Assembly (NCBI GenBank): GCA_964016885.1
Contig: OZ024745.1
Coordinates: 121,706,001 to 121,770,000, forward strand
Reading direction: 5' to 3'
DNA: 64,000 bases
From: Eledone cirrhosa
Lineage: Eukaryota
Below are positions 24,998 through 62,925 of the stretch, one piece after another (position 1 is the first letter of the stretch; the number at the start of each line of letters is the position of its first letter). The translations under genes and the position numbers were made by a program. The notes beneath the pieces are model-generated. The model searched no databases. It was given only the letters and a program-made list of their open reading frames with translations, and was not told the DNA's origin.

Positions 24998-27900
24998 CGT
25001 GGAGGCGCCACGGAAAAAAAGCACCCAGCCCTCACTGTAAGTGAGGTTGGTGTTAGGAAGAGCATCCAGCTGTAGAAATCAAGCCAGAATCAGTTCCTGT
25101 ATGAGCAAGGCATGGTCAGCCGACCAGACACTGCCCACAACAGGACAACCCGTCTAACCCATGGTAGCGTGGAAGAATGGACGTAAAACGGTGATGATGA
25201 TCATGATGATATATATATATAATGTATTGTTATACTTTGGGGGGGGGGGGATCATGCTGCCAATAAAAACACATGCACATGTTGGTTTTCACTTCAATTT
25301 ATTATAAATTTATGGTTGGTTGGTTCAATAACCGGATTGTTGTTTATATATTGTCAAAGCTCTTTCTGGAAATTTATAATAAAGTGAAAACCAACAGGTG
25401 CGTGTGTTTTTATTGGCAGCATGACCCTCCCAAAGTATAACAATATTTGTTTCAACACACCTTTTCAGATAAGAAATCTTGCAAAACAAATTAAAAAAAT
25501 GAAGTGTGTGTGTGTGTGTATATGTATATATACATATATAATGGAAAAATTTGAACAGGGACAAAACGGAGAGGCAGTACAATAAATGTTTATTAATTTC
25601 ACGCTCAGGAGAGTGGGGGGTAGGTGGGGGACGACGTTTCGGGCATAAGCCCTTCTTCTGGTGAGAAGTGTGTGGGAACAGAGTTCAAAAGGTGTGTAGG
25701 GGAGTGGTGGAGAGACATATAGTGAAAGGAAACGGTGCGAATGAAAAATATATATACATATACATATATACAAGGTGGGTCAGAAAAGTTCCAGGACTGA
25801 TGTCACAAAAGATTTATTTCAAACCCAAACTTCACACTAAGAGTTTTCTCCTTCAAAGTAATCCCCCTTGTGAAGGTGTGTGGCTGAGTCGTGAAGGCGT
25901 GTGGCTGAGTCGTGAAGGCGTGTGGCTGAGTCATGAAGGTGTGTGGCTGAGTGGTTAGAGAATTGATCTCTCAATCGTGAGGTTGTGAGTTTGATACCCC
26001 GACCGGGCAATGCGTTGTGTCCTTGAGCAAAACACTTTATTTCACGTTGCTCGTTCTACCTGGAGTTGCGACCGATAGAAAGTATTAGCAATTGGAAAGA
26101 CTAATGGAAACATTGTTTCCTCGGTTCGATTTGACAAAAGTCGATCGACTGTCGATATATATGTGCGTATGTATGTATTTGTATGTATTTGTGAGTTAGT
26201 ATGTGAGAGCATAAGTGTACTTACTTTTATCAATTCCAAATAACCAACATAGTCATAAAGAATGTCATCACAGGTTGAACATTCAAAATCCTGCAATAAG
26301 AATTTTGTCTTTTATTAGTATTATATATATAGATATATAGCGTCCAAAATGTTAGGACCCTCTTCCTGCTATTTCAAGCGTTAAACTAATATATTACTTA
26401 CATATACTGTATCGATTGTGTTGTTATTTCTTTTTATCTTTTACACACACACACTCATATATATATATATATATATATATATGAGGGTGCTTCAAAAAGT
26501 TTGTGGAAAAAGGTCAGCTGGCAAAAATGGTTTAAGTTATGATGCTTATTTTTCAACGTATGCTCCATCTAGGGCAATGCATTTCTCTGCAAGCGTTGAT
26601 ACCAGCCTTTAAGTCCATCTCTGTAAAACTGAGGGCCATCTGATTTTAACCATGTCAAAGCAGCTTTTTTTACATCTTCAACTGATGGAAAATGGGTACC
26701 TTTCATTTATTTTGTTTCAGGTTTGGAAACAAAAAGAAGGCTAAATCAGGACTGTAAGGTGGATATCAGATGATTTCCCATTGAAATTTGTGTAACACAG
26801 TTCGTGCCTGCCGAGTGCCGTGAGTGGGCACATTGTTGTGGTGGAAGAGAATACACCAATGCAGCTTCCTCAGGCGTTTCCCCACAATTTTCAGGGCCAG
26901 TTTTCTCAAAACACCTTCATAATATGCAGCTGTAATTGTTCTCTTGCTCTCAAGGAAGTCGACCAGCAAAATCCCCTCTACATCCTAGAAGACAGTCGCC
27001 ATGACCTCTCTTGAACACTCTGATTTTGCCTTGTCTGGCCCACTTCCACCTTTGGGCAGCCACTGCTTCAATTGAGTTTCTACTGGCAGAGCCACGTTTC
27101 ATCCCCTGTAACAATTCTCTGCAGAAAAGCTTCAGTCTTCATCCCACTTGTTCAAAGTTTCCATCGAAAGATGTGCCTTTGTTTGCTGCTGATCTGGGTG
27201 CAACAGCTTTGGGACCCATCAAGCGGAAAGCTTGCTCAGCCCCAAACTCTCCATCAGAATTGTGTGTGCAGAACCCACAGAGATGTTGAGTTTGTCGACT
27301 ACTGATTCAGTGGTTATTCGCCTATTGTTTTCAATTAGGTTGTGAACAGCATCAATGTTTTCCACACAGACTGACGTGGATGACCTGCCACTGTGGGGAT
27401 AATCTTCAACCTCATCTCTTCCACTTCTAAAACGACATCCATTTGCAGGTTGTTGATTTTTTTGGGGGCATTGTCCCTATAAACTTGCTTCAGAGTGTCA
27501 ATTATTTGGCTGCTCTTCCACCCTAGTTGCACCATGAATTTGATGTTTGTCCTGGCTTCAATTTCGATGGAGGACATGTTGCTTGAGTGGGTGCTGACTT
27601 CCAACTGGCACCGCCGCATTGCAACATGCATTTAAGGGTTCATGTTAGAACATGTTATGACAGTTGGTACAAGAACGTACAGCTGCATTGAGTTCAAAAT
27701 ACCTGCATATGATTTTTAGCTATGTACTTTTTCCACAAACTTTTTGAAACCCACTTGATATATATATATATATTATATATATATATATATATCATCATTA
27801 TCACCATTGTTTAATGTATAGGTTAGACAGGTTTCTCTCATTTACAGGCAAGTTGGGTCGGGTGACCGTGTCTAGCACAGTGAGTCTTGTTACTCTGGAG

Positions 27901-30900
27901 TTTCACCTATTTATCACGGGTCATCAGACAATAACTATTCTTGTTTGATGATCCTGTAATAAACAGGCGAAACTCCAGAGTAACAAGACTCACTTTTTAG
28001 CCTTAATAAAAATTAATATTAAAACTCTACTTTGGTATTGAGTACTCCTTTCTCTCAGCTGTCAACCATATATGGGTATATATATGTGTATATACTGGTC
28101 AGGTCACCAGTTGGTGCTACTGGTAACATGTATCCCAGTACAACCTGTCTCATGGTCGGGTCGTTGGCGACTAAACTGACAAGGCCACCAAGGTTTCTTG
28201 GTGAGGAGGGTGACTTTGGACATCCTGCAGGACTAAAAAAAAACCCGTCAAAGGGTAAAGGAGCTCTTAAGAGTCAATGGCCATCCAAAATCACCGGGAG
28301 AGATGACCCCTTAGCCTTTGTCAAGGCAGAATTTTAGGAGAAGGAAAACTCTGATATAACACCTGCAACCCTGATGGTATCCAATGATGTTGACTTGTGC
28401 TTCTTTTTGGTAAATATCATCTTGGTTAAGAGAGTGGGACTGGCTTTGTGCAGTGCCTTTGCTCACTATAAAAGCTTCACGGCACAGGCATTGCTTTATA
28501 TCTGGAGATCTCTCTGCACTTGTCGTCACATGGTACCATGGGCCCAGCACTATGTGTCAATAATTGTCACAAGTGTAGTGTTTGTACCAGAGTTTTCAAG
28601 TCGCTGGCTGGACTAAGGTCACACTCGTTCAGCGCATCGGTAGGGGTTCTCCTACATGGATATAAAGTAGTGGCCGTACTCGAAAACGAGTTGGCAGCCA
28701 CCATATATATATATATATATATATATATATCAATATAATAAAGGGAGGAGTGCAGGACTGTCCTGAATATATTTTTTTATCTAGTAAGGATGTGTGTACA
28801 CACACACACACACACACATACACATCTGATGGCTGCATCTCGATTTTCAACAATTGTCATCTCTTGATCCCCTTCTCACATATGTGTGGCTCAAAAAAAG
28901 AGACTTTTTTGGCTATAGCCAGCCATGGTCATGCAACACCCGTGAAAGATGTTTAGATCAAGTGATTTCTGTGTTTGAAGCTTTTGTAGGTAAAGAAAGG
29001 CCTTGCACTCTCTGAACAACGATGACATGTATCCAATAAGAACAGGTCAACATCATAGGCTGCCATCGAGTCAGGTTTTACATCTGAGTTTTCCTTCTTT
29101 GAGAATGATGCCCTAATTAGAGCTAAGGGTCTCTCAATCCCGGGGTGCTAGCTGTACGTTCAGGCACCAAACTGAGTATTTTTATGTCCCCACACAATAT
29201 ATATATATATATATCAAGTAAGAATATTTTCGAAACAGCGAGTGGGTTTGAAATTATTAGAAATGTAAGCTATCGCCGTATTTTGACTAAAGAAATTAAA
29301 GAAATTATTTAGCCTGATAGTGGGGTTAACCCCACTATCTAATATATATATATATATATATGTAAATTTTGAGTATATGTTGGTTATTAGCGACACTTCA
29401 GTATGCAGATTGGAGCACTCGACGAAGTACGCAGGTTGGTTTGATTACTCCGGAGTAATATCTTATTCTATTATCTGTTTGGCACCCCCCACCACGTGAA
29501 AAGGTGGTAGGATTGATGCCAACCCACACACACTCATTCTTCTAAAGACAGCAGCAGTAGAACTAAGGCTGACCTGCCAGCTAACCCCCTAACACCAATA
29601 AACACAAGGTCAGCTGTACTTAACAAAAACAACCACAACAGATTGTCTTGCCTCAGAAAAAATGTCTATAGACTTTTGACTGAGGAATGTTCTCACAACT
29701 GACCAATGGGAGGAGAGAGTGTCCTATGATGCCGAAATTCGTTTGTTCGAATTCATATGATTCCAGTTCCTCAGAGAAATAACAACACAACCAGGAGCTG
29801 GACATATCGGAGTATTGACGGAGTAAAACACTTTAACAACATGTGTACCTGTCTCTACCACACCAATTTGGACTGCCTGAAGAGGTCACAGCCAATGATG
29901 GCTGTCACCGAAATATATATAGCAGTACATCTTTAATAAACGAAGCCAAATCTTAAATATTTGACTTAATTACTTTATTATATATATATATATATATACA
30001 TTTGAGCTCAGAAGAAAATTCTCTATTCTTCTTTGAGCTAATACTATTATTATTATTACAGTGAACTGCGGAATACTCTTAATTCTGATCTTTGTATATA
30101 TATACATATATATACACGTCTAACCTATGCTAGCATGGAAGAACGGACATAAAACGGTGATGATGATGACACATATATATATGAAGGCGCATGGCTTAGT
30201 GGTTAGAGCATTGGGCTTGCAATCGAAAGGTTGTGAGTTCAATTCTCGGACCAGGTGATGTGTTGTTTCACTTTATTTCACATTGCTCCATTTTACTCAG
30301 CTGTAGAAATGAGATGATAGGGACTGGGGTCCCTATCATTCCACTGCAAAGTGGTCGTCGAGGTGCCACGGCAAAAAAAAAAAAACACCCAGCCAACACT
30401 GTAAAGTGGATGTGTAGGCGCCACGGAAAAAAAAGCACCCAGCACTCACTGTAAATGAGGTTGGTGTTAGGAAGGGCATCCAGCTGTAGAAATCAAGCCA
30501 GAATCAGTTCCCGTATGATCAAGACAAGGTCAGCCGACCGGACACTGCCTACAACAGGACAACCCGTTTAACCCATGCTAGCGTGGAAGAACGGATGTAA
30601 AACGGTGATGATGATATACGCACACATATTTATATACTCACCCGATCACACGGTTTAGCTAGCAAATAATTCCAGTTGGAGATTTTATTCTTATGGTTTG
30701 GTTTATATAAGATGAAATGAAATAAAAAAAACAAAAAACAGAGTTAAGTTTGATTTGAAGTCATAGCAGTGCTAAAGATGATAGAGAAGGCTGGCATGAT
30801 GGATGAATGTAGAGGTATTTTTGAACAGAGCAGATTCACAGTGGTCTGAAGTGTGTGACACTTGTTAGAAATCAGGGATTCCCAAACTTATTTTGTCACA

Positions 30901-33111: not shown

Positions 33112-36100
33112 GCCTTCATAAATACCCTTATAAAAACTAATTAAAATGTATGCATTGGTACTAACATAATGTAGTCATTATATGGGTATAGAAGAGATAC
33201 TACACTTTGATCTTAGCCAAAAAGTAGTATCTGTTCCCTACCCCTAGAATGACCACATTATGTTAGTACCACTGTTAATTACAAACTGTTCATTCATTTT
33301 AAGCAGTTTTGTATGGGTATTTATGAAGGCATATATATGTTTATGTACAATAAACATATAAGAGTCTCACTATGAATGTTATAAGCTGTGATCATGTCAC
33401 AGCTATCTTAGTAGTTGGTGAGAATGTCAGACACATGTTTCTGGACTGGAGCAACATGAAATAAAGTATCTTGCTCAAGGACACATCTTGCAGCCATTAA
33501 TCGAACTTATGACCTTATGATTGTGAACCAGACACTCAAACTGTGAAGCTATGCACCTTCAGACATACTTAAGAGTTAGTTGGTATTGAATCTCAGATTT
33601 TCTGCATTTCTCACTAGCCTCGGACCAATCTCTACACTACATTACTTCATCTTGAGGCTATTGTCCAAATTGGTGTAGTGCAGGTTTAGCTATTTTTTAA
33701 GCAGAAGAACAATAATCGTTTCTACATTTGGCACAAGGCCAGCAATTACCCAGTGTATTACTGGTACTTTATTTTATTGACCCCGTAAGGATGAAAGGTA
33801 AAGTTAACCTTGGCGGGATTTGAGCTCAGAATGCAAAGGGCCATAACTCTATGCTGCAAAGGATGGTGTCTGATGCTCTACTTATTCTGCCAATCCACTA
33901 TCTGAAGCAGAACTATAATACAACATTTTCTAATACTAATAAGAAAAACTAAGACATTAGTGAATACAAACAAATTAATTAACACACACACATACACTTT
34001 CTCTCTCTCACACACACAGACATACACTTTCTCTCTCTCACACACACAGACACACACTTTCTCTCTCTCACACACACAGACATACACTTTCTCTCTCTCA
34101 CACACACAGACATACACTTTCTCTCTCTCACACACACACAGACATACACTTTCTCTCTCTCACACACACAGACATACACTTTCTCTCTCTCACACACACA
34201 GACACACACTTTCTCTCTCTCACACACACAGACATACACTTTCTCTCTCTCACACACACAGACACACACTTTCTCTCTCTCACACACACAGACATACACT
34301 TTCTCTCTCTCACACACACAGACATACACTTTCTCTCTCACACACATACAGACATACACTTTCTCTCTCTCTCTCTCTCTCACACAGACATACACTTTCT
34401 CTCTAACTCTCTCTCTCTCCCTCTCTCTCACACACAGACAAGCACTTTCTCTCTAACTCTAATTAAAAATCATTATTAAATCTATCGGTGAGGGCGGTGG
34501 ATTGGCAGTATTGGTAGAGGGTTGGTTGTCATGCTTTGACACATAGAGTTACAGCCCTTGCCATTCTGAGTTCAAATCCCGCCGAGGTTAACTTTGCCTT
34601 TCATCCTTACGGGGTCGATAAAATAAAGTACCAGTAATACATTGGGTAATTGCTGGCCTTGTGCCGAAAGTAGAAACAATTATTAAGTCTATCCATGTGC
34701 GGTGGTTTGGCAGTATTGGTTGGGGATTGGATGCCATGCTTTGCAGCATAGAATTACTGCCCTTTACGGTCTGAGTTCAAATCCCGTCGAGGTTAATTTT
34801 GCCTTTCAATCCTTACGGGGTTTATAAAATAAAGTACCAGTAATGCACTGGGATAATTGCTGGCCTTGTGCCAAAAGTAGAAACGATTATTAAATCTCCA
34901 AATTTTTGATTATTTTAAAAATTAACTGAAAACAGCAGTGTCTTTCTTTTGAAATAATGATTAATGATTTAATAAAATATATTGAGAGATATCCAGAACC
35001 ATCCTTGCCTGATTGATAGGGAGTAACCAAAACGACTTTCACTGACTCTGATAAGGAAAGCCCCAAGACAGCAGTTCTGTAGTAGTTCTTCTGATTTTCT
35101 GAAAAATAATTAAAAGAAGAGAAATAGAGATTTTTTTATTTCTTTGTCGAACTGCTTCGATGAAATAAGATGAAACTTGTGATTGTAATGATAAATATGA
35201 TAATGAAATTATTGTGTACAGTGCTTAAGTGCACTACAACTCATCAAAGGTGCATGTATAGTACATAGAATAATGTACAAATGTCAGGAAAATGAACAGT
35301 GTATGAGTCATGATATACATGTGTGCATGTGTATGGAGGGGGGATATCAGGTGTAGTGTTGGCGAATCTCAGGAAGCATGGAGGCTTTAAAGGATGCAGT
35401 GTCTCGGCAGCTAACAACTGATGTAGGTAGTTTGTTCCATGCTTCAGCAACTCTGAGCATGAAAAAATGTTTTCGAAAGTCATGGGAGCTGTGCTGTTTT
35501 CTGACTCTGTTGGCGTGCCCACGTGTGTTAGACACATGGAGATCAAAAAAGTGTTCAGGGTTGTTGTTGGCAAGATGGTTAATAGATCAGAAGTTCTCAA
35601 AGTGGGAGTTACTCCTACCCCCCAGAGGGGACGTTGAGTAAGTCCAGGGGACGCTGGAGTGGCAGTAGAGATGATGATGATGATCATCATCATCATCATT
35701 TAATATCTATCGTCCACACTAGCATTGGTTTAGACGGGAATTGTCCCACTTGAGGTAAGATTGGTCATCTCGCTCGTGTGAGACTGTCTGGCAGGTTTTC
35801 TACGACTGGATGCCCTTCCTAACACTTACCACGTTTACAGTGTGGCCTGGGAGTTTTTTACCGTGTTACCTACATAGCCACACTACAGCGTGGACTGTGT
35901 GTTTTTTTTGTCGTGACACCTACACGACCTCATTTATTTAGGACTGGATGTTGTGGTACCAACATAACTTTACAGAGAAAGGGGTGGGGTAGTGGAAGGA
36001 GGGGGGTATATTTGATTAAGGGGTACCTACTGACTGTAGATTTCGCTTTGTACTTAGGCAAGGCGGGTCTTCTGTATTAATGTGTAGCGCCAAAGATCTC

Positions 36101-41588: not shown

Positions 41589-44500
41589 TTTAAATACCAC
41601 AGTATTTAAAACTTTCTCTAACTACCTCTATCACCGTATCTATCCATTTCTCAGCTAGTAAGATGCCTACACCTCCTACCCCAGTGTCATTTCCTATCCA
41701 GTAGAGTTTATATCTAAGTTGCTTGTCTGTAATTAGTCTCAGTGAGGCACCCCTCCATCTCACTTCTTGTACACAGCATACATCTACTCCTTTTCTCTCT
41801 AACAGTTCCACAATTTCACCTGATTTACTTTTCAGGGTATCAACATTGAGGGTGGCAGTCCTATTATCATTGTTTTACGTCCATTTTTCCACACTAGCAT
41901 GGGTTAGATGAGTTGTCCTGTTGTGGGCAATGCTAGGTCAGGTGATCATGTCTTGCTCATCCATATGTGGTTGACAGTTGAGAGAAAGGAGTACTCAATA
42001 CCGAAGTAGAGTTTTAATATGCACGATGCTGCATGGTAGTGAGACATGGGCAGCAACTGCAGAGGATATGCGAAGGCTAGAGAGAAATGCACCTTTTTAT
42101 ACAGCTTTTATCCTTCATACGCATCACATGTCCATACCAGCACAATCTCCTCTCCTGCACACTGCTTCTGATTCCTCTTATACTTAGTTTCTCTCTTAGT
42201 ACGTTTATGCTTTGCTGTTCACGTATATTACTATTACACATCCTTCGGAGCATGCACGCTTCATTCCTTTCCAATCTACGCAAGTCTTCTGTACACAGCA
42301 CCCAGGACTCGCTACCATGCAACATTGCTGTTCATATGACAGTCTGCCTGTCATTTTGAGGGACAAGCCTTTTGTAGCTAGCAGTGGCAGTAACTCCCTG
42401 AACTTCTTCTATCCCGTTCTTACAAAAATACACATGCACAGACATACATTCCTACTAACACACCCACACAGACATACATTCATACTAACACACACACACA
42501 CAGACACACATAACATTCACACAATTATTACATACACAGCGTTCTATGTATGAGTATATAAATATAAATGTGCAAACACACATACTCACACCCACACATA
42601 CACTCACACACACATATATACTAATAAACACACACAGACATCATTTACACAAACACACACACAGCGTCCCCCCTCCCCTTCCTTCCTTTTTACACACACA
42701 TACATTCACACAGGCAGCAGACGTAAAAAGACAGGAGTAGTATGAGGTAGTCAAACTACTCCTCTCTCTTTATGTGTTGTGACAGAATCGTAGAAATTTA
42801 TATATAGATTTTCTTTTTATAAAATGTTGATTAAAAAGATACATCATTACACTATTATATGAAATTTGTAGTGAGACATTAACAAACTTTGTTTTTTCTA
42901 CAAATTTCATACTTGACCTAATATATTGCTTCTTTATATAAAAATTGTCAAGAAATAATCTTACTTTTATCATATTTATTATACTTGTTGGTTGCTAATA
43001 TTTCCTCGTATACTCTATCACCTTCTGATTTAACTGATTCAGAAAATTTGTCCAGTTCCATTTGGTAACATCTCTTCTGTTCTTTGAGATTCATGTATTT
43101 CTTCCATGCCAGAAAGCCACGGACCACTATTCAAAAGATAATTGTTAAAATATAAACAGTAAATGAAAGTAAGAAAGAAAGAGCAGTTAGACTGAATAAA
43201 ATAAGACTGCACAGGGCAGACATGGCCTCCATAAGTCATAGTAAAGGCAATCTAGGAGAGCAGTCACTGTGAATAAAATCTGATATAGATCAGTGAGGAC
43301 CCTTAAGTCTGGTCAAACAATCTCTCCGGTATTTGTGGCATGAAGAATGCACCAATTCCACACTGTCAAATGCTTGGGGATAGGAAAGGTATCCAGCCAG
43401 AAAATTCTTGCTCCAAACTATGGCAAAAGCAACATATAAGTTTCACACTAGGACTAACACTTATTATGTTAGACAGATGGTTATGAATGTTAAACAAGAT
43501 AGACAGGTGGTTATGAATGTTAAACAAGATAGACAGGTGGTTATGAATGTTAAACAAGATAGACAGGTGGTTATGAATGTTAAACAAGATAGACAGGTGG
43601 TTATGAATGTTAAACAAGATAGACAGATGGTTATGAATGTTAAACAAGATAGACAGATGGTTATGAATGTTAAACAAGATAGACAGGTGGTTATGAATGT
43701 TAAACAAGATAGACAGGTGGTTATGAATGTTAAACAAGATAGACAGATGGTTATGAATGTTAAACAAGATAGACAGATGGTTATGAATGTTAAACAAGAT
43801 AGACAGATGGTTATGAATGTTAAATCCTTCTCTGGATAAGAATACACTACTCAACATGAGTTAGATATGAGTGACATCAGAATAAGCACAAAGCAAAACA
43901 AGAAAGACAGGAAAATCTGAAGGACCTCTCTGTTAAATATCATCATCATCATCATCATCGTTTAACGTCCATCTTCCACGCTTGCATGGGTTTGGACGGG
44001 AGTTTTCCCACTTGAGGCAAGATTGGTTGTCCTGCTCGTATAGGACTGTCTGGCGGGTTTTCTACAGCTGGATGCTCTTCCTAACACCAACCACGTTTAC
44101 AGTGTGGACTGGGAGGTTTGTACCATGTTACCTACACGGCCACATTACAGCGTGGACTGTGTGTTTTTTTGTTGTGACACCTACACGACCTCATTTGTTT
44201 CGGACTGGATGTTGTGGTACCAACATAACTTCACATTGAAGGGGGTGGTGTGGATGGGGTGGGGGTAGTGGGACAGGGGTGTATTTTTGTTAGAGGTGCC
44301 TACTGACTGTAGGTTTCGCTTTGTACTTAGGCAAGGCGGGTCTTCTGTATTACTGTATAGCGCCAAAGATCTCGGTCCAGTGACATTGTCTTGGAGAGGT
44401 GTAAGTGTGCGAGGTCGGAATTTATCAAGTCGTCCCAGGTTTTTCTGGGTCTGCCTATTTTTTATACAGCTGTCGTCTTTCATGCGCATCACGTGACCGT

Positions 44501-53500: not shown

Positions 53501-56500
53501 TGGCTGTAGTAAAGCCCTAGCCAGACAGAGAGTAACCTGGTGGAGAAACATCACAGTAGATAGAACCATTAAAGTTAAGAGACAGGCATGGAAAGACTGG
53601 AAAAATGGGGGTAGCAGAAACCGGTACCAGGTGGCTAAGAGAGAAGCTAGTTGACAGATATACACAGCTTGGAGAAAGGAAGAAAAAGAAAGTTTGCCAA
53701 TGTCCTGAGACATGAGGATCAGAGATGTGAAGTGTTTCACATTGCAAGGTAGTGTGTTAGAAATGACACTGGTGTATTTAACACCACTGATGCTCAAAAG
53801 AAAGAGGCCTGGAAATGTTACTATGAGAGATTGATGAATGCAGAGAATGAATGGGAGGAAGAGAAACTACCCTCAACTTACCCAACAGAAGGACCAACTA
53901 TTGAAGTTGGCAGTTATAGGGTCAAAGAAGTAATTAAAGAGATGAAGAATGGTAAAGCCATAGGACCATCAGAGATAGTTGCTGAGATGCTAAAAACATC
54001 ATAAGTAGGAGTTGAACTAGTAACCTGCATAGTCAATCAGGTAATACAGGACAGAGTGAAACTCAATGACTGGCACAGCAGTACAATCATAAATTGCTAC
54101 AAGGTTAAAGATGATATGACAGAAAGAATTATAGCACAACTAATTAGGGAAATCAATTCAAGAGGAGTATCCCATATTATGTAAAAGAGTTTTAGCAATT
54201 TTATTACAATGTTCAACTTCTTATATATGTGAACTAGGCTTCTCAACATTAAACATCAAAAACAAGAAGCATGAGAGATTACGTACAACGGAAGAAGAAA
54301 TGAGGGTGTGTCTGTCTCATATTCGACCAAACATTGAGGAAATTATGAATAAAAGCCAGGCACAAATTTCTCACTAAAGAAGCCAGCTATTTGACTGATG
54401 AAATTCGAAACACTGCAATAAAGTAAGTTCATAGCTGTGTTTTTCTTTATTTAGTTTAAGTCATTCTATGTCTATGACTTGTCTGTGTCTACAGTTGTAT
54501 GCTGTCTATGACTAGTCTGTGTCTACAGCTGTATGCTGTCTATGACTAGTCTGTGTCTACAGTTGTATGCCGTCTATGACTAGTCTGTGTCTACAGCTGT
54601 ATGCCGTCTATGACTAGCCTGTGTCTACAGTTGTATGCCGTCTATGACTAGTCTGTGTCTACAGTTGTATACCGTCTATGACTAGTCTGTGTCTACAGTT
54701 GTATGCCATCTATGACTAGCCTGTGTCTACAGTTGTATGCCATCTATGACTAGTCAATGTCTACAGCTGTATGCCATCTATGACTAGTCTGTGTCTACAG
54801 TTGTATGCCGTCTATGACTAGTCTGTGTCTACAGTTGTATACCATCTATGACTAGTCTGTGTCTACAGTTGTATGCCGTCTATGACTAGTCTGTGTCTAC
54901 AGTTGTATGCCGTCTATGACTAGTCTGTGTCTACAGTTGTATGCCATCTATGACTAGCCTGTGTCTACAGTTGTATGCCGTCTATGACTAGTCTGTGTCT
55001 CCAGCTGTATGCTGTCTATGGCTAGTCTGTGTCTACAGTTGTATGCTGTCTATGACTAGTCTGTGTCTACAGTTGTATGCCATCTATGACTAGTCTGTGT
55101 CTACAGCTGTATGCTGTCTATGACTAGTCTGTGTCTACAGTTGTATGCCATCTATGACTAGTCTGTGTCTCCAGCTGTATGCCATCTATGACTAGTCTGT
55201 GTCTACAGTTGTATGCCGTCTATGACTAGCCTGTGTCTACAGTTGTATACCGTATATGACTAGTCTGTGTCTACAGTTGTATGCTGTCTATGACTAGTCT
55301 GTGTCTCCAGCTGTATGCCATCTATGACTAGTCTGTGTCTACAGTTGTATGCCGTCTATGACTAGTCTGTGTCTCCAGCTGTATGCCATCTATGACTAGT
55401 CTGTGTCTACAGTTGTATGCCGTCTATGACTAGTCTGTGTCTCCAGCTGTATGCCATCTATGACTAGTCTGTGTCTACAGTTGTATGCCATCTATGACTA
55501 GTCTGTGTCTACAGTTGTATGCCGTCTATGACTAGTCTGTGTCTACAGTTGTATGCCGTCTATGACTAGTCTGTGTCTACAGTTGTATACCGTCTATGAC
55601 TAGTCTGTGTCTACAGTTGTATGCCGTCTATGACTAGTCTGTGTCTATGGTTGTATGCCATCTATGACTAGTCTGTGTCTACAGTTGTATGCCGTCTATG
55701 ACTAGTCTGTGTCTCCAGTTGTATGCCATCTATGACTAGCCTGTGTCTACAGTTGTATGCCGTCTATGACTAGTCTGTGTCTCCAGCTGTATGCCATCTA
55801 TGACTAGTCTGTGTCTACAGTTGTATGCCATCTATGACTAGTCTGTGTCTCCAGCTGTATGCCATCTATGACTAGTCTGTGTCTCCAGCTGTATGCCATC
55901 TATGACTAGTCTGTGTCTCCAGCTGTATGCCATCTATGACTAGTCTGTGTCTCCAGCTGTATGCCATCTATGACTAGTCTGTGTCTACAGTTGTATGCCA
56001 TCTATGACTAGTCTGTGTCTCCAGCTGTATGCCATCTATGACTAGTCTGTGTCTACAGTTGTATGCTGTCTATGACTAGTCTGTGTCTCCAGCTGTATGC
56101 CATCTATGACTAGTCTGTGTCTACAGTTGTATGCTGTCTATGACTAGTCTGTGTCTACAGTTGTATGCCATCTATGACTAGTCTGTGTCTCCAGCTGTAT
56201 GCTGTCTATGACTAGTCTGTGTCTACAGTTGTATGCCATCTATGACTAGTCTGTGTCTACAGTTGTATGCCATCTATGACTAGTCTGTGTCTACAGTTGT
56301 ATGCCATCTATGACTAGTCTGTGTCTACAGTTGTATGCCGTCTATGACTAGCCTGTGTCTACAGTTGTATGCTGTCTATGACTAGTCTGTGTCTATAGTT
56401 GTATGCCATCTATGACTAGTCTGTGTCTCCAGCTGTATGCCATCTATGACTAGTCTGTGTCTACAGTTGTATGCCATCTATGACTAGTCTGTGTCTACAG

Positions 56501-59500
56501 TTGTATGCCATCTATGACTAGTCTGTGTCTACAGTTGTATGCCGTCTATGACTAGCCTGTGTCTACAGTTGTATGCTGTCTATGACTAGTCTGTGTCTAT
56601 AGTTGTATGCCATCTATGACTAGTCTGTGTCTCCAGCTGTATGCCATCTATGACTAGTCTGTGTCTACAGTTGTATGCCATCTATGACTAGTCTGTGTCT
56701 CCAGCTGTATGCCATCTATGACTAGTCTGTGTCTACAGTTGTATGCCATCTATGACTAGTCTGTGTCTCCAGCTGTATGCCATCTATGACTAGTCTCTGT
56801 CTCCAGCTGTATGCCATCTATGACTAGTCTGTGTCTCCAGCTGTATGCCATCTATGACTAGTCTGTGTCTCCAGCTGTATGCCATCTATGACTAGTCTGT
56901 GTCTCCAGCTGTATGCCATCTATGACTAGTCTGTGTCTCCAGCTTTATGCTGTCTATGATTTGCCATGTTTTTATTTTGTAAAATTCAAATATTTTTCAT
57001 ATATATTTAGCCAGGTGTGCTGCTATTTTTCATGTGTTCCAAGGTGTGCCGTTGGTCAAAAAAGGACGAGAACCACTGAGCTAGACTAAGGATAGGATGC
57101 AAGACATTTAGAGAGCTACTCCCACTGTTGACTACAAAAGATTTCTCCCTACATACAAAAGGAAGGCTGTATGACACCTGTATGGAAAATGTGATGCTGC
57201 ATGGTAGTGAAACATGGGTAGTGACTATTTTAAACTGGATAGAAACAGTTATCATTAGCGTCAGACGCCATGCTTTGAAGCATAGAGTTATAGCCCTTTG
57301 CGTTATGAGTTCAAATCCGCTGAGGTTAACTTTGCCTTTCATCTTTACGGGGTCAATAAAATAAAGTACCAGTAATGCACTGGGGTAATTGATGGCCTTG
57401 TGCCAAAAGTAGAAACAATTATTATCATCATCCTTTTATCCTCACTTTTTCCATGCTTGCATGGTTGGAAGGGTCTTTTCCAGCATAGCTTCTCTCTACT
57501 CATTGTGTTCCTTTGTCATCTCCTCTGTGAGCTTCAATGATTTGAGATCAGCTCTCATCACCTCTGCCCGAGTCTTCCTTGGTTTTTGTTGTAGAGGAAA
57601 AAACCCTGAACACCCCTGTGTAACTAAAAGTGGACTAGGCAAAAAGTCTATAAATAAGAACTGAAGTGAACTGTGTGTACGGAGTCTCATTGTAATCTCT
57701 CGGTAGTTCAGAATTACGCCTGGTGAATACCTTGAGTTTTTTTACTGATATACAAAACAGGGGTTTCACACCATTATAATAGTCTTCCTCAACTGCAGCC
57801 TCCTTCCACCAGCATCATATTCATCACATGTCTATACCAGTGCAGTCTTCATTCTTACACACTATATCTGATTCCTTTTGTACTCACTTTATCAGGTTGT
57901 CGACATCTCTTCTTCTCCTTTTCATCCTCCTCCTCATCATCATCATTGTCATTGCTGCACTGCCACAGCCTTACATAAACAGGGACAAGATAAGAACTGT
58001 TGATCTTCCAGCTGATAGACCAATACCCTATCAGCTCAGTCAGTTGTGACTCACCATAACCCTTTAGCATTTAAACTGGCCGTATCTGGCCATAATTCTC
58101 TCACGTCTTTCTGTTCAAACCGGCCGTAACTTGCTACTCATACTGACATTAAGATATTGTTCTCAAAACAAATAACATCAAAATCTCATAGATTTGATAT
58201 TATATGAGATAAAGCCTTTACCTCAAAAATACAATAATATATATAGAGTAATGTAAATGCTAAAGGGTTAAACAATATGCAAGATAAAAAAAAAGTAGTC
58301 TTACCTTAAATTGGGCACCAACGGTTAGTTTCCGCACTTTATCCATATAGTGAGTCTCCTAGAAATGTTAGAAGTATTACATAAATATCACACAATTTAT
58401 GATTATATCAGAATTAAATTTAAAGTAATTTCTAAATATGACTCAGGATTTAAACTTTATATAAATATATTGGCGTAGCTTGGGGATCAGAGAGTCACTC
58501 CAGGTAGAACTGCTACTTCTCTGACTTGAGAGATCTCAGCACCGATACTATGGGCATATGGTTAGAATGTCTCAGGAAAGAATCACTGGACAGATTTTAC
58601 GGGCAAAACCAACTGGTAGGAGACCTAAGGGTAGACCCCGAGCAAGATGGTTGGATAACATCCATGAGCTTGGCTGGTCTGGAGCAAAAACCACAGTTTA
58701 TCAGCTAGCTTGGACTCAACAATCTCCTTGTATTTCTTTGCCAGACATTTAGCATTGACTTTACTGGGGAGGCTTAACAAGGCGATTTCTCTGGAATTGG
58801 AACAATCTCTCTTGTCTCACTTTTTGAAAATTGGGATTATCACTCCTGATAGCCATTGCTTAGGTGCCTTTCCAGAGAATACCTTCTCTATTTAAGGATT
58901 TTAACATCTTGGGCTGGATTTCATCTTACCCAGTGACCTTGCCACATTTGAGCTTTTTAATTGCTCTTGTGACCCCAGCCTCTGAGAGATTAGTCACCAC
59001 TTCCAGATGCACCTTGTGTATATCAGAAGATGCTGTTGTGACCTTGTTTAGGAGATCAGCAAAGTATTCTCTTCACCTTGTGAGGATGCACCTCTGTGAA
59101 GAGAGGAGAACCCCAGACATGTTCTTGATAGGTGTGGAGAAGGGCTTCTTATCACAAAGTTGGCGGATGGTCTGCCAGAACACTTTACTTGCTGATCTGA
59201 AGTCAGCTTAACCACAAATTCCTCCCGTGTCTTAACTTTGGACACCTCTACTGTCTCTGCTGCAATTCTTTGTGCCTGCTTGTAGCACAAGTGCAAGGGG
59301 GGGGGGGGGGGACGACACTTATTTCCAAGCCAAGCTTTGTAAGCCTTTTTCTTTGCTTGGATGGCAACAAAGCCTCTTTCACCCACAGCATTTATTAGCT
59401 GAAGCAGAAACTGCTGAGCTAAACAATCTCCACACTGTCACAACATCCTCAGTTTGCTCAGGGAGTTCTCTGAATTTAGATGCAATAGTATCTGCATACA

Positions 59501-59972: not shown

Positions 59973-60206
59973 CTTGAAAGGATATAACAATAAAAAGTTA
60001 TGTGGAAATATTCAACAATTATCTCTGCTTTACTTGGCTCAATTTAGTTAACTGTGTAATTCTCAAATGAATTTGTCTTCGTGCTAACATAAAAAATAAT
60101 TATTATTATAGCTAGTAATATATGCTTACGCTGTATTTGACTAAATAAATTAGTCTATTAGTTGGGATTTGAAAAAACCCTCTGAATGGAAAAAAGGATG
60201 AGTATT

Positions 60207-60275
60207 GATGTACAAGGGACACAACCCCCATCTTTGGTTTGCCGGACCAATGTGTTACCATTACACCAATACACC
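60207..60275 (-). pseudogene. tRNA-like sequence (SINE head or tRNA pseudogene)
   Basis: GGTGTATTGGTGTAATGGTAACACATTGGTCCGGCAAACCAAAG folds into D and anticodon arms; T loop is degenerate. Confidence 0.4.
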
Positions 60276-60368: not shown

Positions 60369-61235
60369 AAGATACAAAGCAGGCTTTGTTTTCATTTGTA
60401 GAAGCTGTTCCCAAGTGTCAACTAGAAACTCAAGAGACAGCAAGATAATGTGTTAAGATAATACACAAGTTCCATTTGTATGAGTGTGTGTATATATTTG
60501 AGTGCATGAAGATCTGTATGAATAATTTTTATTTGGGTATTTTTAAAATTCAAAATTCCATATGTATGTACATAAACATATTAATATTATAGATAATACA
60601 GGTACCTAAAAACAGTTTTTTTATTAATGCATTTTTGCTTTTTTTCAAGATGTCTAAGATTTCAGCTGGTTGTGTGTCTCTGTTCTTTTCTAGCCAGTTA
60701 TTAGTATTGTAAGTGACCTGTAATAAAATGAAATAATGAAATATGGTGAATTATATAAAAGTTTATGAAATAATTTTACAATTATTTTGTTGTTTAGAGA
60801 TAAAATTATTTCTTTCCTTGAAGATAAAATTATTTTATACTTAAAATATTATAATTCTATTTTCCTATGGTAATAAATTTAGATTCTTTTGAGTTGTTCA
60901 TCACGACTGTAGTATGGAGAAGACTATTCTTTTGTGAGAAAAAGGAAAAAATATTATAAGCCATTGGCTAATATGTTTTGTTTTTTTTCTTACCACTTAT
61001 TTCATTTTTCAATGCTTTAAAAGTCTATATTTTGATTGCTCCATTAGAATCCTCTTCATAAAGTGGGGAAAAAGTAATAAATTGCTGAACATGAATAGTC
61101 ATTTGAAAATCATAGATAGTCATATTTATTTTATTTCATATTAGTATTAGTGCTCCAACATAGTGTTTTATATATATATATATCTGATACCATCAACACC
61201 ATAAACACAGAGCTGGAATATATAACAACTGACTA

Positions 61236-61291
61236 ACTGCCTGATGAGGTCATAGCCATTCAATGGCTATCATCGAAATATATATAGCAGT
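61236..61291 (+). ncRNA. Minimal type I hammerhead ribozyme, same family as 29872
   Basis: ACUGC-CUGAUGA-GGUcAUAGCCAU uca AUGGCUAUcAUC-GAAA-UAUAUA-UA^GCAGU. Confidence 0.85.
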
Positions 61292-61391
61292 AAATAAAGG
61301 ATTATGAGACCATGCAATTGACTTATGTTTCGTCACTATATATATATATATAAATTACACAATTATCAAAGTTATGTTCAAATCATTTTAT

Positions 61392-61633: not shown

Positions 61634-61828
61634 AGGGCGGTGGATTGGCAGTATCGGTAGAGGGTCGGACAGCATGCTTTGAAGCATAGAGTTACGTCCC
61701 TTTATGATCTGAGTTCAAATCCCGCCGAGGTTAACTTTGCCTTTCATCCTTACGGGGTCGATAAAATAAAGTACCAGTAATGCACTGGGTAATTGCTGGC
61801 CTTGTGCCAAAAAGTAGAAACAATTATT
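61634..61828 (+). mobile_element. tRNA-headed SINE family A (Deu/Nin-like centre). At least 14 other copies, e.g. near 1500, 10249, 17883, 33715, 34491, 34698, 40290, 52505, 57250, 63728.
   Basis: A box TGGCAGTATCGG, B box GTTCAAATCCC, centre GCCTTTCATCCTTACGGGGTCGATAAAATAAAGTACC. Confidence 0.85.
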
Positions 61829-61866: not shown

Positions 61867-62925
61867 TACGTGTTGTAAATCGAATAATATTACAAGATGT
61901 TTATGAAAAACATTTGACGGCCTTTTGCTATGAACTTTTAAGGTTGTAATCACCATCAAACATCCTTAGTCTCAATAAAAACAAGGGGGAAGTAACCAAT
62001 AACATTGTTTCTCTCTTGTTGGTGGTTGTCAAGGCTACATACCCACCTAGTTACCAGAAGCTAGAATATTATAGATTTCTCACTTATATATATAAAGGCG
62101 TGTGGCTGAGGGGTTAGAGAATTGGATTCACAATCTTGAGGTTGTGAGTTCGATTTCCGGACCAGGCGATCCTTGAGCAAGAGACTTAATTTCATATTCC
62201 TCCTTCTACCTGGATTTGCAACTGATAGATAGTATTAGCAATTGGAAAGACCAATGAAAACATTGTTTTCTGAGTTTGATTTGATGAGCTTCACCCTATT
62301 CGTTAAGCGAATGAGGTCTGGGATCATGTCAATCGACTGTCGAATGTTGGTATATGAGCTGACGAAGCTCATTTGCATACAGAGTGGCAGCCAGCCCAGC
62401 TTTAATTAACAATTAGTATTGACGCTCCAACAAAACATTATGTATCATCATCATTCATCATTTCATTTTACGTCCGCTTTTTCCCTGCTTGCAAGGGTGG
62501 GACGGGAACTGATTCTGGCTTGATTTCTACAGCTGGATGCCCTTCCTAACACCAACCTCATTTACAGTGAGTGCTGGGTGCTTTTTTGCCGTGGCACCTC
62601 CACGACCACTTTGCAGTGGAATGATAGGGACCCCAGTCCCTATCATCTCATTTCTACAGCTGAGTAAACTGGAGCAATGTGAAATAAAGTCTCTTGCTCA
62701 AGGAAACAACACATTACCCGGTCTGAGAATTGAACTCACAACCTTTCGATTGCAAGGCCAATGCTCTAACCACTAAGCCATGTGCCTCCATTGTATATAT
62801 ATATGTATAGTATATTTGGTAATATACTGTATGTTTAATTAAAAACATTTTGAAGACCTTCCGCTATTATTTTAAAGTAGTGACTATGTCACTTACTTCT
62901 TTTTTCAGCAAAGGAAGGGAGAGAA

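Follow-up and report, generated by a model that had tools for sequence, protein, structure and literature searches.

A probable gene-less, head-to-head insertion of a Hydra-clade Penelope-like element carrying a dimer-type hammerhead motif in a (TA)n run of Eledone cirrhosa

Anatomy of the 617-bp insertion

The window considered in the current analysis is a stretch of 64,000 nucleotides of Eledone cirrhosa DNA, in which a 617-bp insert (29362-29978) is situated between two (TA)n runs. No ORF has been found in this copy, the longest open stretch being 68 aa. The following features have been identified at the site.

29341..29361, no strand: left (TA)n target run
29362..29459, minus strand: inverted arm, the "tail" of about 100 nt, which elsewhere follows the end of the pLTR and leads to the start codon
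29414..29456, minus strand: bulged hairpin A (RCUC, 7-bp inner stem, 2-nt 3' bulge, GAGUGCU)
29459..29978, plus strand: forward arm, the 5'-truncated 3' end (pLTR part) of an element assigned below to the Hydra clade of Penelope-like elements (PLEs)
29754..29759, plus strand: CATATG, about -165 from the hammerhead cut site, a hot spot of 5' ends in other copies
29979..29998, no strand: right (TA)n target run

The tail-less site, where the forward arm ends, lies about +57 from the cut site; read in the sense of the element, hairpin A stands a few bases to the 3' side of this end site. A search of the genome (3.0 Gb) with 29362-29978 has yielded 4,027 candidates. The 39 other scored copies match the query from positions 97-109 to 617 at 93-97% and none of the 39 is collinear with it over 1-617; in many copies the counterpart of query 1-98 is found on the opposite strand, immediately after that of query 617. 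The window copy is therefore composed of an inverted 98-bp tail and a 520-bp forward arm. Contigs have confirmed the joint 29459/29977 on opposite strands (tail/pLTR) and show further joints at 29755-29758. The first-pass annotation had described a single 620-bp element at this site; it is not a unit, since the insert is a composite whose first 98 bp lie on the minus strand. That annotation had missed the identity of the insert as a PLE fragment and the inverted-tail nature of these 98 bp.

Partial tandems have been identified in four loci (L060, L063, L065 and L070), in which a pLTR with hammerhead is followed by the tail, the start codon, the ORF and a second pLTR. In tandem copies the tail reads on into an ATG, the start codon lies about 215 nt behind the cut site and the unit measures about 4.0 kb (4,003 bp in L065 and 4,023 bp in L070). 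The family thus has the partial tandems forming pLTRs, the inverted 5' arms and the optional tail of PLEs. Of the 30 copies sampled, 28 have a TA run no more than 300 nt from the cut site. The 617 bp very probably represent a gene-less, two-arm, head-to-head insertion of a Hydra-clade PLE in (TA)n with the usual pLTR hammerhead. The clade and the ribozyme type of this copy are known ones, and its family is new.

The hammerhead motif at 29872-29926

A descriptor search of the 64,000-nt window has identified a type I hammerhead motif with an intact core on the plus strand, which is organised as follows.

29872-76 and 29922-26, plus strand: stem I, ACUGC / GCAGU
29877-83, plus strand: CUGAAGA core
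29884-29909, plus strand: stem II
29910-12, plus strand: GAA core
A29913-U29920, plus strand: stem III, AUAUAUAU, palindromic
29921, plus strand: A17, with the predicted cut at 29921/29922
29935..29940, plus strand: AATAAA, a putative signal; the copies have no poly(A) end

The intact core nucleotides, the cut after 29921 and the AATAAA behind it had all been noted at first pass, and they agree with this layout. The CUGANGA, GAAA and UH elements of the class are present together with helices I and II. A helix III stable in the monomer is lacking; it forms between two copies. The predicted monomer fold leaves stem III open, closing it costs 2.7 kcal/mol, and the predicted cofold of two copies is a strand-swapped dimer hammerhead at -42.4 versus 2 x -17.6 kcal/mol, in line with the earlier suggestion that the self-complementary stem III suits a dimer. 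The motif is, on these predictions, of the known dimer type and is predicted to fold only as a dimer. Dimer cleavage of hammerheads is reportedly the subject of work by Lunse et al. in 2017.

The strict descriptor gives two matches in the window and a looser one adds a third plausible match, at 27927. Over 977 kb of fetched loci the descriptor finds 235 distinct matches versus 0, 0 and 0 in three shuffles, and the genome contains 3,445 exact matches to a 24-mer spanning the cut site and 0 to its control; the motif is therefore not a product of chance. A scan of the window against Rfam reported neither this hammerhead nor the one at 61236, nor any other relevant family at the 29872 site.

Assignment of the family to the Hydra clade

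RT and GIY-YIG domains occur in one ORF in the longer family copies and are absent from the window copy. The ORF motifs of the long copies (RWK/RWR, DKT, FDITMGSSDSAQV, YRDD, WYNPPYS, CxCX5C, YIG, CxxC and CxH) match the definition and the alignments of the Hydra clade as given in the available portion of PMC8557442 (Craig et al. 2021). RWK, and DKT in place of DKG, are represented by RMRWK/RMRWR and HADKTNN, whereas the CxCX5C linker, CxxC and CxH, read by eye as CNCRNPALC, CKLC and CRH, accompany a C-terminal endonuclease. By eye a single Cys lies between the GIY and YIG parts, as in an endonuclease without CCHH. The assignment rests on these motifs. Hydra elements are generally under 3 kb and the present unit is about 4.0 kb, length being described in PMC8557442 as a tendency and not as a defining motif. 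Nematis/Neptune had first been considered from the Cys linker and was dropped after comparison with the Hydra definition and alignments.

A total of 24 protein homologues share 33-54% with the family; they include full-length ORFs of 635-806 aa and their names include Argonauta and Octopus. No intact ORF has been found among the 20 long copies examined, all of which are broken, with a longest open stretch of 547 aa. In Pfam the endonuclease scores below the cut-off (E 0.002) and the RT has no match. A related PLE ORF fragment, P0018, bears the NCBI name "GATA zinc finger domain-containing protein 14-like" (Octopus sinensis), which is likely to be a misannotation.

Hydra elements are known from PMC8557442 to target (TA)n and to carry canonical hammerheads, and one octopus family, Hydra-1_Obim, is listed there. 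The present family shares with the clade the order RT then GIY-YIG with RWK, DKT, CxCX5C, CxxC and CxH, the (TA)n target, a canonical hammerhead of type I close to the 3' end, copies both tandem and inverted, and a tail at one end. It differs from the published description in its unit length, in a low-complexity insert of ~120 aa following the RT thumb, in its long 3' UTR, in a tail of about 100 nt against 30-40 published for PLEs, in a stem III that starts with AU and not AC and is not the one of Hydra-1_Obim, and in its thousands of copies.

PLE hammerheads have been described as having a palindromic helix III, dimer dependence, solo copies and opposite-strand pairs (PMC4209133, Cervera and De la Pena 2014; PMC6765202). 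The type I layout with long helix II, short helix I and palindromic helix III described in PMC4209133 recurs here, as do the dimer-type fold (predicted in this case), the many solo copies and the opposite-strand pairs 100-700 bp apart. The differences are that the 8-nt palindrome here happens to be (UA)4 and that helix II has a C-C mismatch and not a single bulge. The ribozyme flagged at first pass is thus ordinary for its element class; it is the anatomy around it that could matter.

One tail in nearly every head-to-head insertion

The first 100 exact matches on contig C1 supplied 87 loci, in which 3' ends lie either at about +56 (no tail) or at about +155 (tail) behind the cut site. These loci contain 37 head-to-head pairs. 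Two canonical ends are present in 33, and all 33 have one tailed and one tail-less end; the other four, which have an internal end, received no score. Single arms comprise 30 with a tail, 28 without and 7 of other form. The probability of such a result is about 2e-10 for 32 independent pairs, with L110 and L111, which are probably one event, counted once.

Of 20 pairs picked by hand in a second superfamily, 19 could be scored (L245, which reads on into an ORF, was unscored), and each of the 19 has one tail. A third family has one tail in 8 of 9 pairs, the exception being L263 with both arms tailed. In the sister family of the 61236 motif this holds for one of two pairs, the other (L127) having a 9-nt second arm that lacks a tail. 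Exactly one tail is therefore present in 61 of 63 head-to-head insertions from four families. Every locus in these samples had to match the motif exactly, pairing in the first family was restricted to arms no more than 250 bp apart, and the end calls for L240 and L247 were set by eye.

In 16 of 34 pairs (the rearranged L119 included) the tail-less arm extends upstream by more than 20 nt beyond the other, and in 6 of the 34 the tail arm has no overlap with it; the arms are thus templated separately. Of 12 pairs compared for arm likeness, 11 have partners closer to each other than the median of the remaining arms, and in only one is the partner the nearest. It is unlikely that the inverted arm of the same element arose by fold-back (self-priming) or from two RNAs joined via the palindromic stem III, even though rotifer PLEs have been suggested to self-prime (PMC3846280), the near-palindromic -165 site is where many arm pairs join, and stem III is predicted to be able to pair two RNAs. 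Fold-back cannot give the non-overlapping arms of those six pairs and of the window copy, and two free RNAs should yield pairs with two tails or with none in about half of cases, against the two such exceptions among 63.

The 5' ends of 50 of 128 arms fall at -180..-150. In two families they cluster at CATATG, about -165 and -105 from the cut site (29754-29759 in the window; L124-L147). The cluster may reflect an RNA start, an RT stop or palindrome-aided joining.

A bulged hairpin behind each end site

A hairpin of the form RCUC-[stem-loop]-UH-GAGYRCU stands 3-6 nt behind each 3'-end site. Copy A at the start of the tail and copy B behind the tail have been identified in the window family (L063, L065, L070 and others) and in the second superfamily (L245). 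Among 70 distinct instances behind hammerhead cores, which are not independent (18 clusters, many from one family), 49 have an inner stem of 3 or more bp in the register with the 2-nt 3' bulge. Other registers account for 0-5 of the 70, and shuffles gave a mean of 2.9 and a maximum of 9; the background of the motif is 37 of 7,740 windows. The third family, examined afterwards, has hairpin copy A in the same place. The motif is absent from several other hammerhead families among the fetched loci, and Rfam has no family for the hairpin in three loci.

In published consensus sequences inspected by eye, and so far as these are available, two hairpin copies precede the start codon of Hydra-1_Ajap, one is present in the tails of Hydra-2_Ajap and Hydra-2_Amil, and a variant occurs in Hydra-1_Crog; none was seen in those of Hydra-1_Amil or Hydra-1_Obim. 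No description of the one-tail rule or of the doubled hairpin was found in the literature covered, which did not extend to Arkhipova 2006/2017, Lunse 2017, the Repbase reports or bioRxiv supplements. The near-strict one-tail rule, together with a doubled hairpin that is shared between this genome and published Hydra elements of coral, sea cucumber and copepod, provides a defined RNA element to mutate.

A possible mechanism of insertion

A precedent is available in the Poseidon PLE of Anolis (PAc), which cuts and extends both target strands in vitro; its RT starts at two internal RNA sites bounding the tail, and hammerhead mutants insert normally (PMC11167929, Frangieh et al. 2024). Two apparent internal start sites bound the tail here likewise, and the hammerhead that is dispensable there is read through here, an observation that agrees with that work. 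The Anolis system also has a binding element 3' of the start sites and a predicted protein dimer. The portion of the report available describes no strand difference in start sites and no duplicated hairpin, whereas the genomic insertions considered here use one site per arm, each with its own hairpin, and the start sites lie in the 5' UTR and not in the ORF.

By analogy with the anole PLE, the endonuclease would cut both strands of the (TA)n run, each free 3' end would prime reverse transcription inside an uncleaved (or circular) RNA, one per site, and both cDNAs would stop early and be joined head to head. In the window copy the cDNA primed at the tail would have ended at 98 nt, with four bases left before the second start site, and its partner would have extended for 520 nt. 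The two hairpins would be putative binding sites by which two RT-endonuclease subunits are positioned on the same RNA. We tentatively propose, with slightly less than even confidence, that two hairpins on one Hydra-clade PLE RNA load an RT-endonuclease dimer, one subunit each, and so prime both (TA)n strands at two fixed sites. Since the arms overlap in most pairs, a model with one RNA needs strand displacement. The hammerhead is likely to have had no part in making the window copy. If the proposal is true, dimer-loading hairpins would explain the long-unexplained PLE tail and the head-to-head structure, and the hairpin would be a portable RNA signal for the choice of RT start site in a telomerase-related enzyme.

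Stem III, the (TA)n target and the retrozyme reading

The first-pass annotation had suggested that stem III mirrors the microsatellite target. Cleavage would then expose a 3' (UA)n end that pairs with nicked (TA)n and primes reverse transcription, as telomeric repeats do beside Terminon hammerheads. The 5' cleavage product would indeed end in AUAUAUAUA, telomeric PLEs provide a precedent (PMC6431247), and 13 loci begin at the cut site behind a long TA run, by a pattern that misses the window's own subfamily. However, 3,445 exact matches read through the site versus 28 candidates with a longer TA run; of 20 of these viewed, 16 represent slippage and three or four (L074, L079, L088 and perhaps L089) end at the cut site within a TA run. 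Only 2 of 128 sampled arms start within -10..+5 of it, well under 1% of copies end there, and the few ends that do so fit simple microhomology.

None of 25 published Hydra families (26 rows) in the available part of PMC8557442 has a (UA)n stem III, although 24 are listed as (TA)n-targeting. Sister families of the AUGCGCAU and ACUCCAGAGU types end in TA runs likewise, and in this genome other palindromes, such as AUGCGCAU, ACUAGU and AGUACU, are found in families that also do so. The mirroring of the target by stem III is thus largely refuted as a main route and is left with a very slight probability. Several palindromes keep the ribozyme dependent on a dimer, the (UA)n stem III among them, and the likeness of this stem to the target is most likely a coincidence in an AT-rich genome.

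It is equally improbable that the 620 bp constitute a non-autonomous retrozyme or SINE-like unit replicating via hammerhead-made circles. The flanking (TA)n, the lack of an ORF and the start of 50 of 128 arms near -165, which could mark a short transcript, would fit such a unit, and 312-bp tandem hammerhead repeats exist elsewhere in the genome; the non-LTR retrozymes (PMC7229834; bioRxiv 10.64898/2026.07.22.740005) are likewise non-coding, PLE-related and of type I. Retrozymes are recognised by tandem unit-length repeats, each with a hammerhead, in a family without an ORF. The present copies have no fixed 620-bp unit (0 of 39 collinear, as above), a result that refutes this reading for the window copy; other copies extend to full ORF-bearing units, and there is a single hammerhead and no tandem array at this site. 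In contrast to the retrozymes of PMC7229834, the insert has no tandem repeat unit and is a truncation product of an ORF-bearing element.

Comparison with the 61236 motif and selection on RNA pairing

The window contains a second hammerhead of the same type.

61183..61341, plus strand: 160-bp 3'-end fragment of a sister family, in (TA)n, with the hammerhead at 61236-61291

No ORF of this sister family was found in six 10-kb stretches. Between the stem II of the 29872 motif and that of 61236-61291 there is one two-sided change (C-G to U-A), as noted at first pass, and also one one-sided change (G-C to G-U); the C-C mismatch is common to both and the loop of the 29872 motif is one base longer. 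As regards the divergence of the flanks claimed earlier, blastn aligned only 60 nt of the element with the 61236 fragment (52 identical), whereas MAFFT finds the flanks faintly alike.

Across families stem III takes the forms AUAUAUAU, AUACGUAU, AUGCGCAU and AUAUGUAU and is self-pairing in each. By hand count, the first 100 stem IIIs listed for the related superfamily comprise 30 of AUAUAUAU, 35 of AUGCGCAU, 28 of AUAUGUAU and 7 others. The AUAUGUAU type amounts to G-U pairs tolerated in stem III. Its origin by CpG decay has been considered and rejected, as the mirror form AUACAUAU is represented by 0 of these 100 against 28. The retention of self-complementarity in stem III is good evidence, from sequence comparison, for selection on RNA pairing in active lineages. 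The earlier claim of selection on the RNA structure is thus upheld between families and is not supported for the window copy: among 29 copies the hammerhead varies at 1.5% (24/1,595 cells) versus 1.2-4.4% in flanking 55-nt blocks, and core changes occur in 6 of 377 cells of the family hammerheads. Copies within the window family decay about evenly. That the host has co-opted the window copy as a functional ribozyme is barely credible, for its core is intact but most copies of this family, only about 5% diverged, are equally so, its variation and core changes are those just given, and it is a lone copy with no partner in cis.

Genome-wide abundance and neighbouring repeats

The related superfamily (L227-L258) has 58,977 full-motif hammerhead matches, with 0 in the control, and its locus L245 leads into a Hydra-like ORF start. 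With the 3,445 of the window family added, the hammerhead motifs of this genome number at least 62,000 and provide a large natural collection of dimer-type variants. The axolotl, with 126,000 reported hammerhead motifs, stands above this number.

A third PLE-type family is represented in the window at 27870-28090 by a head-to-head insertion with a minus-strand hammerhead at 27927 and a partial plus-strand one. The stem III of the former (ACUC-CA-GAGU) is like that of published Hydra ribozymes, and 670 exact 25-mer matches are found in the genome. The insertion has one tail with a bulged hairpin at 28024-28046, and a tail-only piece lies at 42012-41990 on the minus strand. Retrozyme-like tandem repeats, in which every unit of ~311 bp has a type I hammerhead with ACGCGU as stem III, have been identified at L009:2300-3250, L035 and L132:181-803, and a tandem of ~470 bp with ACUAGU at L066.

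A short repeat is situated between TA runs to the left of the element (29209-29340) and is also found upstream of L004; it ends in a perfect 24-bp palindrome (29316-29339). Heads of tRNA-like SINEs occur at 30183-30300, 61645-61800, 60206-60275 and 62723-62780, several of them in TA runs. The window also contains minisatellite arrays at 54471-56959 (34 bp), 33982-34371 (30 bp) and 43470-43824 (30 bp).
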